64,000 nucleotides of DNA from Escherichia coli (GTDB lineage Bacteria > Pseudomonadota > Gammaproteobacteria > Enterobacterales > Enterobacteriaceae), in NCBI RefSeq assembly GCF_022846255.1, contig NZ_AP025682.1, one strand, 5' to 3'. Position numbers: made by a program. Shown here piece after piece: positions 24,301 to 52,578 of this stretch; the first letter of the stretch is position 1, and the number at the start of each line of letters is the position of its first letter.

Positions 24301-27300
24301 GTCTGGAAAGCCATCTACAAAAACTGCTGACCGATGCCGTGAAAATGCGTGGGCTGATTGCGCCCGCCAGCAAAGAAACCCGTATTCCAAAATCGATATA
24401 TGAAGGTATCCAGACCATTAACCGCAATCTGGTTTGTATGCTGGAGTTGCAAATCAATGCATACTGGGCCACGCGCCCCAGCCATTTCGTGTTATTGAAC
24501 GCGCAAAAACTTCGTGATACCCAGCACATGATGCAGCAAATACTGCTGAGCCTTGTTCATGCGCTGTACGAAGGTAATCCGCAGCCGGTTTTTGCCAATA
24601 CGGAAAAATTGAACGATGCTGTGGAAGAGCTGCGTCTGTTGCTTAATAACCACCATGACCTGAAGGTTGTGGAAACACCAATCTATGGTTATGTGTGGCT
24701 GAACATGGAAACGGCGCATCAGCTTGAGTTGCTATCGAATCTGATTTGCCGGGCCTTGCGCAAATAATTCCTGAACTTCAGAATCATCTTGCTGCTGCTT
24801 CGATTCAGCAAGGATAAAGGGTATGATAGTGAAAAGGGATAAAAGCATTGTCATCTGCGGCAGCTATGAGTAATGTTGGCCCTATCGAATAGCGGTTGCT
24901 TAAACGAATCCGACTCTCACATTATCAGGGGTATAAAAATGGAAACTACCAAGCCTTCATTCCAGGACGTACTGGAATTTGTTCGTCTGTTCCGTCGTAA
25001 GAACAAACTGCAACGTGAAATTCAGGACGTTGAGAAAAAGATCCGTGACAACCAGAAGCGCGTCCTGTTGCTGGACAACCTGAGCGATTACATCAAGCCA
25101 GGGATGAGCGTTGAAGCAATCCAGGGCATCATCGCCAGCATGAAAGGTGACTATGAAGATCGCGTTGACGATTACATCATCAAAAATGCCGAGCTCTCCA
25201 AAGAACGCCGCGATATCTCCAAAAAGCTGAAAGCTATGGGCGAAATGAAAAACGGCGAAGCGAAGTAATTCCTGTTTTATTCAATGAGGGTTGCCCGGCA
25301 ACCCTCATTGCTCATTGATTCTTATCTGTGTATCACCGTCATCATTCTCATCTGAGAACCTATCGAAATTAGCGGCAGCCTTCTTCTGTATGCAGCAAGG
25401 CAAAAAGTTCTGTAACTCCATTGTTATTAACCGCACTGGTTACTAACACGTTGTGCGCTCCAGCTTCCCGTAACCAACATTTCACCAAAGATATTTGTTC
25501 CATGCTGGCTAAATCTGCTTTGGTTACTACTCCAATGACCGGGTGATTCATGGCCCGGTAGGGCGTTTTTACCTCTAATTCCTGCTTCAGCGCTGAGATT
25601 CCTGCTTGTTGCCGGAAAAGCAGGCACCTGCCGTCTGAACGGTATCGATCCGGAAGCGTATCTGCGCCATATTCTGAGCATACTGCCGGAATGGCCCTCC
25701 AACCGTGTTGACGAACTCCTGCCATGGAACGTAGTTCTCACCAATAAATAAGCGTCAATATGGTGCTCCGTTGACGCTTACTTTAATCCGTTTTCTGAGC
25801 TTAGATTTTTCTGTTCCTACCCAGACCGTGGATTTGGAATTCATTTTTTGTCAGGTCAATGCTAATCGTTAAAACGGCCATAACGCACCTCCACTGGAAG
25901 GTTTATCAGTAATATCCTACCGTTGCTTCATGGTCGGGGCGTCCATTCCATTATTATCGGTTTTCCTTTCTGTTTATAAATGAAAACGCCAGCTGTATTC
26001 AGGCTGGCGTCAGGGGAAATGAAGCCTGTTGAGTGAGATTCACCGGTTCTGGTGCAGAAGCTGCAGATGGCGCAGGGTAAGGACATCTTCTCTTGCCTGC
26101 TTAATACAGGACAACAGTGCTGTTTCTGTGGTTAATGGCACTATACCCTGCATCACTGCATTGTCTTACAGCAACTGGTGAGGGCTGGCATAAGTTGCCG
26201 GTGTTTCGGTAGAGTCACGGTCATCCACCACGCGGAGTGAATAACCGTTTTCAGCGGCCTTATTAATCAGTTCAGTGATATTAACACCATCAATGTCAAC
26301 GACAATGTGCCCCATATCCAGCGCCTGTACGTTAACGCTGTCGGCTTCCAGTGTCATCATTTCGCCTCCGGATACTTACCCAGGGTAATGTTATTTACCG
26401 TTCTGTAATTGTCGCGGGTCATCAGGCCGGTCGCCCTGCGAGCCCGGAGGATATCGATGCTGTTTATTAACTGAGAGCGGGTACAGGCGCTGAATCCCGG
26501 CTGGTCGGTAGCACCAGCGCGTATTTTTCCACGAGAAAGTTCACCGCATCACACAGTGAAATGCCTGCCTCAATATGCTGCTCAATCACACGTTCATCGG
26601 CAAAAGGTGTGTCATTCTGTGTGAGGCCATAGTGCTGGTCCAGCAGTCGGGACAGCAGTATCTGCCAGATTTCAACAGGAGACGGGCGAGAACTGGCCGC
26701 CTGCCCGGGTAATACAGGTAATGTTTTCATACTGAAGATTTTCCTGATATGCAGATATAAAAATGGAAAAGTGGCGTGGTGAAAACACCAGGCCGTAGCA
26801 GAAGGCTATTCTGGAGAGTTAATTTTTCATTTCGGGCGTCGGATAAACAGCCAGATAAACGTAACCACAACTGCTGAGGGTATCGGCTTTGCAGGTCAGC
26901 CCTTTTGCATACAGCGTGACGGTATGCTGATGGCGGGGATTCAGTTCACCGCTGGTGAGCATGAGCTCCAGTTGTTTCATCAGCAGCGGAAAGGCCTGGT
27001 CCAGGTGGTACGCATCTGCATCGCTGAACAGGCCTCTGATACCGGCGCGGTCGGCAAGGTAATGCAACCGGTTACCCTCCTGCACCAGACGTGCCCCGAA
27101 ACAGGGCGTCACGGTGCAGGGCAGCCCCCACCAGGGGCGGTCGTGATTGTCGTCGGGAAGTGTTGTCCCGGGGAGTGTGTCTGACACGATAAAATCCTCA
27201 CAGAAAATCGGTTAAGAATGGTCCGGTAGTGGCGATAATTCTGCTCATCAGAATGCCCTGACTCAGTTCAGGGTGACACTCATCAGGCGGACATACGGGC

Positions 27301-51300: not shown

Positions 51301-52578
51301 TTTCGTTTGATAAATTATACTTTTATAAATCTTAGACGAATTCATAAAGTTGATCGCATAATCACTAAAGTGATCTGTACCTACTTTTGTTATGAAATAA
51401 ACATCAGTATCGGCAAAGCTTGCTGCCAGCGCTTGGTTACAACCTTTTCCCCCCGGTGAAAATATAAAATTACTTGCCAGAAGCGATTCTCCGATAGTGG
51501 GAAGCCTCGGCAAATAACTGATGATATCAACATTAAACGAACCAATAACGCATACTTGACTTTTCATAGTTGAGTGGCCTTTTTTTATTCCCTGGGCTGT
51601 ATCATAATTTTCAAGCGCATAAGCGATTTCATTTTTCGCAATAGTATCAAGCGAGTCTAGGACGATAAAAGCACCGCCATGACATCGAGTCAGATAGCCA
51701 AGTCTGGCAAGTTCATTAAGATCTGATCGAATAGTTTCTTTCGTTACATTGAGGCTATTGGACAGATCGGATACTTTTACAGAACCGAATTTACTGAGTC
51801 GTTTCAATATTTCATGATGGCGTTCAAATTTCATGCTTCACCTCACTTCAGTTACGTTAATATCTGTCGATGTATATTGATGTGATAATCACCATAAAGT
51901 GGCGGGGAAAAGCAAAAAAAATCAAAAATAGCCGGAGAAAAGGTAAGCGTTAATGGAGAATCATATTGATGCTTATTTATTGGTGAGAACTACGTTCCAT
52001 GGCAGGAGTTCATCAATACGGTTGGAAGGTTATTCCGGCAGTACGCTCAGGATATGGCGCAGATACTCTTCCGGATCAATGTCGTTCAGAAGGCAAGTGC
52101 CGATAAGCCCATACAACAGTGCACTGCGCTCGCCGTCGAAGAACATAAAGTTTTTATTTCCGAGACAGATGGCACAAAGGGCTTTTTCCGCGGCATTATG
52201 TCTGCCTCCGCCTGACCGTCAACACTGTAATAACAGAGTGCGCCCCACTGATTCAGTACACAGCTGAACCATTCTCCCAGTCTGGATTTTTGGACAGCGT
52301 GGCATTTTTCTCCACCATCCACGCATGCAGTGAGTCCAGTAACAGTTTGCTCTTCCTCTGCCTGACCACAAGATGTTCTGGTTCTGGCATACTGAATTTG
52401 GCCACCTGAGCATAGGTAATATGCTCACCTTAGAACAACACAGATGCTCCAATGAAAAAAGGAAATTTCAGCGCAGAGTTTAAACGCGAATCCACTCAAC
52501 TAGTTGTTAACCAGAACTTTACGGTGGCAGGTACCATCCAAAGCTATGGATGTCGGTCTTTCCACAATGACAAGATAA

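Follow-up and report, generated by a model that had tools for sequence, protein, structure and literature searches.

Two inverted IS66-family stumps in a CP4-44-type island of Escherichia coli are probably relics of separate insertions

Two short segments lying in inverted orientation about 26 kb apart in the 64-kb window (the whole stretch of Escherichia coli DNA analysed here, 64,000 nucleotides) are very probably dead remains of two different IS66-family elements that inserted independently and were later truncated. The evidence for this comes from what the stumps are and where they end, from how unequally they have diverged, from their distribution among genomes and from the absence of inversion junctions. 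The insertions would have hit the variable stretch that separates tmaR/yoeF from cobU, where the CP4-44 island lies. All that survives in each relic is the tnpC 3' end with the right terminal inverted repeat, the remainder having presumably been lost in later events; the order and nature of these truncating events are our reconstruction. The resemblance between the stumps reflects nothing more than membership of one IS family, and their inverted orientation is incidental. Having kept neither an intact transposase nor a left end, they do not transpose, and they do not detectably recombine with each other. The segments concerned are listed here.

25623..25781, plus strand: left IS66-family stump, the 3' end of tnpC and the right terminal inverted repeat
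25782..51942, no strand: segment between the stumps, 26.16 kb, part of the CP4-44-type island
51943..52388, minus strand: right IS66-family remnant, ~446 nt, the 3' end of tnpC and the right terminal repeat

A repeat search of the whole window revealed 25623-25784 and 51940-52101 as its sole inverted pair of at least 40 nt (162 nt, 88%; 143/162 nt identical without gaps). The IS-derived part of this pair, 25623-25781 (plus) against 51943-52101 (minus), was identical at 141/159 nt (88.7%), with a longest perfect run of 41 bp at 25713-25753, and outside both edges the identity dropped to 15-33%, the random level. The chance expectation for such a match within 64 kb is ~4e-55; this value, together with the uniqueness of the pair, rules out chance similarity of the two segments. 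The original prediction had placed the segments at 25620-25781 and 51943-52100 with ~89% identity estimated by eye. These coordinates were right to within a few bases, the estimate agrees with the measured identity over 159 nt, and the check across the whole window found the inverted similarity to be real and the only long inverted repeat present.

Pfam and NCBIfam profile matches bore out the earlier assignment of both segments to the C-termini of IS66-family transposases. Their C-terminal fragments match IS66 family TnpC with scores below the full-length cut-offs, as expected. Translation of both segments ends in …R(V/I)DELLPWNVVLTNK followed by a stop, and both terminate in …ACGCTTAC. The shared end, also pointed out before, is a genuine IS terminus: both stumps end …CGCTTAC precisely where the intact IS66 elements L005, L006 and L007 end, with unrelated flanks and unrelated DNA beyond. 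L005 carries GTAAGCGT at both ends, and its inverted repeats match at 24/40 positions. The left stump comprises the final 42 tnpC codons with their stop codon (25749-25751), followed by the right terminal inverted repeat, which ends …GACGCTTAC; the stump matches Pfam DDE_Tnp_IS66_C (PF13817, 7.5e-16) and lacks the element's 5' ~2.35 kb. The right remnant, whose terminal repeat reads GTAAGCGT… from 51943 on the plus strand, carries a 14-bp deletion and two 1-bp deletions (frameshifts) and has an in-frame TAA at 52032-52030 in place of a Trp codon. Its three-frame translation gives IS66 TnpC throughout, and the repaired peptide matches Pfam DDE_Tnp_IS66 (PF03050, 1.2e-12, model positions 196-282/284), DDE_Tnp_IS66_C (PF13817, 1.1e-14) and NCBIfam IS66 (NF033517, 7e-19, profile positions 270-385/387). 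Searching the window by BLAST with intact IS66 elements gave matches only at 25623-25781 and at 51943-52380, the latter being the BLAST limits of the right remnant; a tnpA-tnpB-tnpC organisation is thus absent from the window.

The two stumps have diverged unequally from intact elements. For the left stump, identity is 98.7% with the end of L005, an intact 2,505-bp plasmid IS66 named in RefSeq merely 'tnpC: IS66 family transposase', and 95.6% with ISEc23. Over its aligned stretch of 446 nt the right remnant is 83.0% identical to L005 and 85.4% identical to ISEc23, and over the shared 159 nt it is 88.7-89.3% identical to the left stump, L005 and ISEc23. No intact IS66 closer than ~85% to the right remnant was found in the E. 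coli and plasmid collections searched; with only 83-85% identity to any intact copy found, the remnant belongs to a lineage that has no intact representative in those collections. Since it is equally distant from the left stump and from modern elements, it is an outgroup to both and not the left stump's twin. The right stump is therefore a more decayed copy of a different IS66 lineage than the left.

These values bear on the earlier suggestion that the pair marks the ancestral limits of an IS66-flanked composite region, in which two inverted copies of one IS66 element would once have moved the 26-kb segment as a composite transposon, now decayed. Both stumps are of the IS66 family, and the arrangement is a permitted one, with the right terminal repeats facing the 26-kb segment and the IS bodies pointing outward. 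However, near-identical flanking copies would be expected, and these two are only 88.7% identical to each other, the left being close to a modern IS66 and the right ~11% distant from the left and from modern elements alike. The outer parts of both copies are missing, and with them the outer ends and the 8-bp target duplications expected of IS66, each stump having kept just one end. As an observation on the geometry itself, it fits a decayed composite with inward-facing right ends, whose deciding outer ends are lost.

The distribution of the stumps was analysed in 5,426 complete E. coli genomes, with the left and right junctions counted each on its own. The left junction was present in 3,445 genomes, K-12 included, and the right PfkB/IS66 junction in 1,782; K-12 lineages have the left junction alone. 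The supposed unit is thus not present or absent as a whole, K-12 having the left junction and part of the interior, and most genomes with the left junction apparently have no right one. The gene content points the same way. The window is E. coli chromosome, in which tmaR/yoeF is followed by the CP4-44-type island, and its gene annotation was taken from a collinear genome that is 99.9% identical. Between the stumps lie DUF957', yeeW, cbtA (frameshifted), cbeA, yeeT, yeeS, antirestriction and DUF932 genes, then patatin/RdcB/dynamin genes, a yeeP-like GTPase gene, IS150, an inovirus-Gp2-like gene, zinc-ribbon genes and an ISL3 pseudogene, and at the end a phosphotriesterase/DMT/amidotransferase/PfkB module. 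The 'cargo' therefore includes yeeS to cbtA to yeeW, a distal module that is standard in CP4-type islands, and K-12, which has only 22300-28000 and 35467-36022 in common with the window, carries this yeeS-yeeW module with the same left junction and has neither the PfkB module nor the right stump. In the collinear genome the island also runs on for over 30 kb past the right stump, and in strain EC-107 it reaches as far as yoeA-cobU. With unequal divergence, a left junction that stands alone in K-12 and an island that continues past the right stump, a decayed composite transposon is very unlikely. Rather than forming a separate unit bounded by IS66, the 25.8-51.9 kb block makes up one part of a larger, mosaic island of the CP4-44 type.

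The segments had also been proposed as substrates for inversion. In its full form this explanation holds that the 159-bp inverted homology drives RecA-dependent inversion, so that strains would differ in the orientation of the segment, or the orientation seen today would already result from an inversion. The homology is indeed inverted and contains the 41-bp perfect block. The minimal length for RecA-dependent exchange in E. coli is reportedly about 23-27 bp; as the perfect block exceeds this, a rare inversion would be possible in principle. Divergence of 11% should strongly lower recombination of this homeologous kind. Both recombinant junctions predicted for an inversion (J1 and J2) were built and searched in the 5,426 complete genomes. 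J1 was found in 0/5,426, and J2 had no true instance, the best match being 91% and in two pieces. The J2 search did return 11 high-coverage matches, all two-piece look-alikes at 88-91%, which arise because separate ISEc23 insertions lie near the same island end. Both orientations were thus not seen among the genomes, and the comparison of orientation across assemblies that had been suggested gave no inverted form: in 11/11 genomes common to both top-match lists, the stumps have the window's relative orientation, with a spacing of 26.2-28.8 kb. The gene order from tmaR through yeeS is furthermore collinear with K-12. Inversion between the stumps is therefore extremely unlikely as an account of the region.

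On the left, the separate-insertion reading would have a deletion bring the interior of IS66 up to about 70 nt from yoeF, a truncated pduV-like gene, giving rise to the widely conserved pseudogene yoeD. The cut in the stump lies at 25622/25623, beside this gene fragment.

25369..25551, minus strand: yoeF, EutP/PduV-family GTPase gene fragment, C-terminal ~40%, with the N-terminal ~85 codons missing

The fragment is supported by RefSeq and K-12 annotation and matches Pfam PduV-EutP (9.1e-13, model positions 86-142/143) and TIGR02528 (6.3e-11, positions 86-141/142). Some 70 nt separate the point where detectable yoeF homology begins from the cut edge of the left stump, and for this reason the stump may record an old deletion breakpoint. 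A further reading builds on this proximity: the left stump would record an IS66-associated deletion of an ancestral cbi-pdu region and would be a true boundary of the variable region, unpartnered with the right stump, the other boundary being a cbi remnant next to cobU. In Salmonella, the interval from yeeX to cobU contains the pdu and cbi operons. In keeping with such a loss, the nearby PduV/EutP fragment is C-terminal and adjoins tmaR, a 'cobalamin biosynthesis protein' fragment sits at the far edge in EC-107, beside cobU, and the junction is kept in all 3,445 genomes noted above. However, 69 nt without assignment separate the stump from recognisable pduV homology, equivalents of pduW and pduX are also missing between yoeF and tmaR, and an IS-adjacent deletion is indistinguishable from an unrelated deletion ending there by chance. 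We consider this reading possible but rather unlikely. If true, the left stump, as a fossil of cbi-pdu loss by deletion from inside the IS into pduV (for which we see a minor chance), would preserve the breakpoint of the loss of the ancestral propanediol/cobalamin region in E. coli.

The left junction appears to have drawn repeated IS66-family insertions: three separate ones were found within ~400 bp of each other there, in different strains and all in the same orientation. An intact ISEc23 at the yoeD position in strain C288 was considered as the untruncated ancestor of the left stump and rejected, since its terminus and the stump junction differ in position by 113 bp, the terminus being the more distant from the island. 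A literature search on yoeD and yoeF returned almost solely unrelated word matches.

On the right, the separate-insertion reading would have an IS911-related IS3 element land in tnpC, after which further rearrangement may have removed or displaced the 5' part.

52389..53141, plus strand: IS911-related (IS3-family) remnant, the left end, orfA and the start of orfB

This stump is frameshifted, has internal stops and has lost its 3' part. It lies directly against the right IS66 remnant and cuts that remnant short at ~52388; its own first base is ambiguous within 52377-52389, and it overlaps a RefSeq pseudogene at 52451-53141. It matches the NCBIfam IS3 transposase profile (NF033516, 4.7e-21, profile positions 1-127) and is 82.7% and 80.6% identical over ~750 nt to two annotated K-12 IS911A fragments. 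The earlier claim that an IS911-like remnant interrupts the right copy is thus half sustained: an IS3-family stump does abut the remnant, but in BLAST of intact IS66 elements the IS66 sequence never resumes after it inside the window. In the collinear genome, a compatible tnpA'-tnpB-tnpC' piece lies ~0.65 kb past the window's end. This piece corresponds to ISEc23 positions 302-982 (84.0% identity) and the right remnant to positions 2121-2572 (83.4%); the two lie on one strand and in the expected order. Because strain EC-107 lacks the off-window piece, we can only infer that the two were once a single split element.

Both stumps were already known. They are flagged as transposase pseudogenes in RefSeq, the left as 'transposase domain-containing protein, missing N-terminus' and the right as 'IS66 family transposase, frameshifted, incomplete', and the left has borne the K-12 gene name yoeD for years. 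They are ordinary, annotated IS debris from independent insertions in a CP4-44-type island that varies through many independent IS insertions and deletions. The finding matters little in itself. Its useful result is a negative one, namely that the pair should not be read as a mobile-unit boundary or an inversion switch, and its only mildly interesting thread is historical, the position of yoeD beside a truncated pduV-like gene.

Compared with known systems, the window resembles composite transposons of the Tn5/Tn10 type in that two inverted IS-derived segments flank a block of accessory genes. It differs in that the flanking copies are different elements that have no outer ends or target duplications, and in that other genomes do not carry the 26-kb block as a unit. 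The IS3-family stump is collinear with the left end, orfA and start of orfB of IS911 (K-12 IS911A, insN); it differs in its frameshifts and absent 3' part, and its nucleotide identity of just 81-83% makes it a relative of IS911, not IS911 itself. The IS66 stumps are closest to the ISEc23/IS682 group of the IS66 family (relatives named by PGAP: ISEc23, IS682 and ISEc43), which comprises tnpA-tnpB-tnpC elements of about 2.5 kb with ends GTAAGCGT…. Both stumps match the terminal 159-450 nt of such elements and stop at the same final nucleotide; unlike intact members, they lack tnpA, tnpB, most of tnpC and the left end. The closest counterpart of the left stump is yoeD (b4642) of E. coli K-12 MG1655, a pseudogene at the tmaR-proximal end of the cryptic prophage CP4-44. 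Aligned with K-12, the stump and the sequence on either side of it correspond base for base (~99% identity), with only a few point differences, and the order yeeW, DUF957', stump, yoeF and tmaR is the same in both. The difference lies behind the stump, where the window strain carries a much larger island that includes the dynamin/patatin genes, the PfkB module and more.

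The window is Escherichia coli chromosome, positions 20001-64000 being collinear with and 99.9% identical to NZ_AP022049.1, and it carries two IS66-family relics in the following setting.

Backbone side: …sbcB, dacD, sbmC, yeeA and tmaR
25369-25622 (minus strand): yoeF, a fragment of an EutP/PduV microcompartment GTPase gene that keeps the C-terminal ~40%
25623-25781 (plus strand): left IS66 stump, 3' end of tnpC
Island, toxin-antitoxin end: DUF957', yeeW, toxin gene cbtA (26357-26730, minus strand; frameshifted according to the annotation of genomes identical to the window), cbeA (antitoxin, intact), yeeT, yeeS, antirestriction, DUF932
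Island interior: patatin-like phospholipase, RdcB-family, 798-aa dynamin-family and GTPase-family genes (30887-36381, minus strand; resembling dynamin-type modules), IS150, inovirus-Gp2-like and zinc-ribbon genes, ISL3 pseudogene
PfkB module: phosphotriesterase-related, DMT transporter, amidotransferase, PfkB kinase
51943-52388 (minus strand): right IS66 remnant
~52389-53141 (plus strand): IS911-like stump
Beyond: aspA/dcu/racemase/LysR module, IS200 remnant, second dgo cluster

Searching all 64 kb of the window for repeats gave a single inverted pair of 40 nt or longer (25623-25784 versus 51940-52101; 162 nt, 88% complementary), with arms 26,155 nt apart, and no direct repeats. Ungapped alignment of the arms gave 143/162 identical positions, with a longest perfect run of 41 bp (25713-25753); just outside both edges identity fell to 15-33%. 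The IS-derived 159 nt (25623-25781 and 51943-52101) were identical at 141 positions (88.7%), a match with a chance expectation of ~4e-55 in 64 kb. The left segment translates to …GIDPEAYLRHILSILPEWPSNRVDELLPWNVVLTNK* and the right, on the minus strand, to …DIDPEEYLRHILSVLPE*PSNRIDELLPWNVVLTNK*. The coordinates, the identity of about 89% and the peptide given in the original prediction were therefore correct, and the inverted pair is real.

Both segments were assigned to the IS66 family by matches to the transposase C-terminus. The left 48-residue peptide matched Pfam DDE_Tnp_IS66_C (7.5e-16). The right remnant is readable over ~150 codons spread across three frames; after conceptual repair, its 139-residue peptide matched DDE_Tnp_IS66 (1.2e-12, model positions 196-282 of 284), DDE_Tnp_IS66_C (1.1e-14) and the NCBIfam 'IS66 family transposase' profile (7e-19, positions 270-385 of 387). 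The segments were also aligned with two intact three-gene plasmid IS66 elements, L005 (2,505 bp, GTAAGCGT… at both ends) and ISEc23 on pC15-1a. All aligned copies shared the end …GACGCTTAC, and the flanks beyond it were unrelated in every case; 25781 and 51943 are thus genuine IS66 right termini, as the proposed shared end had implied. When the intact elements were compared with the window by BLAST, 25623-25781 and 51943-52380 were the only IS66 pieces identified.

The neighbour of the right remnant matched the NCBIfam IS3-family transposase model (4.7e-21), and it was 82.7% and 80.6% identical to the two fragments of the annotated IS911A of K-12. The label 'IS911-like' is fair, but the element is a diverged relative, is frameshifted and lacks its 3' part. 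The right copy had been described as interrupted by this element; because no further IS66 sequence follows it within the window, 'truncated by' fits better.

Comparison with modern elements separated the two stumps. Over the 159 nt, the left stump was 98.7% identical to L005 and 95.6% to ISEc23, whereas the values for the right stump were 88.7% against both the left stump and L005 and 89.3% against ISEc23. When all 446 aligned nt are counted, the right stump was 83.0% identical to L005 and 85.4% to ISEc23; it has lost 14 bp in one deletion and 1 bp in each of two others, and contains an in-frame stop. Its named neighbours are ISEc23, IS682 and ISEc43, and no intact element more than ~85% identical to it was found in the plasmid or E. 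coli collections. Since the left copy is close to L005 and the right copy is equally far from the left copy and modern elements, the right copy groups as an outgroup to both. If two copies of a single IS had inserted at the same time and decayed where they stood, living relatives should be about equally distant from each; that is not the case here, and the two are not twins.

The original prediction also proposed that the stumps mark the ancestral limits of an IS66-flanked composite region. The 1.8-kb left junction was present, at coverage of at least 80%, in 3,445 of 5,426 complete genomes, and the 1-kb PfkB/IS66 right junction in 1,782. K-12 lineages matched the right-junction query only through yoeD, their counterpart of the left stump, at 87%, and K-12 has in common with the window only 22300-28000 and 35467-36022. 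In the collinear genome the accessory region runs for more than 30 kb past the right stump, with IS debris, a group II intron and metabolic modules; in strain EC-107 the right stump is followed by IS3 remnants, and the region reaches yoeA and cobU. The left stump thus lies at the island/backbone edge and the right stump is internal to the accessory region. The two do not bound a unit, and the composite reading is not supported.

Beside the cut edge of the left stump, the non-IS sequence codes for the C-terminal ~57 residues of an EutP/PduV-family protein. yoeF matched the Pfam EutP/PduV model at 86-142 of 143 (9.1e-13) and TIGR02528 at 86-141 of 142, with recognisable homology starting ~70 nt from the stump. 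The simplest account would be one deletion from inside IS66 into a pduV-like gene. At the opposite edge of the region in EC-107, beside cobU, lies a fragment of a cobalamin-biosynthesis gene. Salmonella has its cbi-pdu genes between cobU and yeeX, so this variable region as a whole may sit at the site of a lost cbi-pdu block. The yoeF/left-stump junction looks like a deletion breakpoint, possibly linked to pdu/cbi loss at this E. coli locus.

On the right, an IS911-like element would have cut tnpC. A further IS66 piece lies ~0.65-1.3 kb past the window's right end in the collinear genome (NZ_AP022049.1 1982890-1983560; locus L008 1891-2561) and corresponds to ISEc23 positions 302-982, namely the 3' half of tnpA, tnpB and the first ~70 nt of tnpC. 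It is 84.0% identical to ISEc23, compared with 83.4% for the right remnant (positions 2121-2572), and the two are on the same strand and in the right order. They may be halves of one old IS66, later split by ~12 kb with loss of ~1.1 kb of tnpC; the intervening stretch holds the IS911 stump, the aspA/dcu/racemase/LysR genes, the IS200 remnant and the dgo cluster. The off-window piece is not present in EC-107, so we keep this account as an inference. This field of IS debris still gains new insertions. In EC-107 the right remnant is split at about window position 52144-52150 by ISEc45 (IS110-family) with a nested IS3-family element (L004 17200-19952). About 12 kb past the window (L008 13751-13789) there is a third trace of IS66, the 39-nt tip of a terminal repeat, which matches the ends of L005 and ISEc23 at 94.9% identity and adjoins IS256 and IS4 pseudogenes. 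Plasmid p399-2 (IncFIB/IncI; L010, CP084536.1 142556-156002) carries the LysR/racemase/dcu/aspA module with the same degenerate IS66 remnant (99% match) between IS3 and IS1 copies, indicating capture of a chromosomal island segment onto a plasmid.

The stumps had further been put forward as substrates for inversion. We searched for the two predicted junctions, J1 (tmaR-yoeF-repeat joined to PfkB, 2,000 nt) and J2 (island end joined to the right remnant, 794 nt). None of the 5,426 complete E. coli genomes matched J1 at coverage of at least 80%; the best match (58%) was the native right junction. J2 reached this coverage in 11 genomes, solely as two pieces at 88-91% identity, and the matches inspected were rejected as inversion products, being different events: an intact ISEc23 near the island end in C288 (L011 7091-9909), its terminus 113 bp beyond the left stump junction, and an intact ISEc23 inserted in yoeF beside an unchanged yoeD in NR1441 (L012 7380-10154). 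Both copies lie within ~400 bp of the island end, oriented as yoeD, and with yoeD they bring the independent IS66-family insertions at this small spot to three. Eleven genomes were among the best matches for both stumps, and in these the stumps kept the window's relative orientation at a spacing of 26.2-28.8 kb. The 41-bp perfect block is longer than the minimum usually cited for RecA-dependent exchange, but ~11% divergence should strongly suppress such exchange. An inversion could in principle occur rarely; none is on record, and the proposal is not supported.

Taken together, both segments are ordinary, non-functional IS relics that arose independently and lie in a mosaic CP4-44-type island; both are transposase pseudogenes in the existing RefSeq annotation. 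In K-12 MG1655 the left stump already has a name, as pseudogene yoeD (b4642), and lies at the end of the annotated cryptic prophage CP4-44 that is nearer to tmaR; the window is ~99% identical to K-12 through this stump and both of its flanks.
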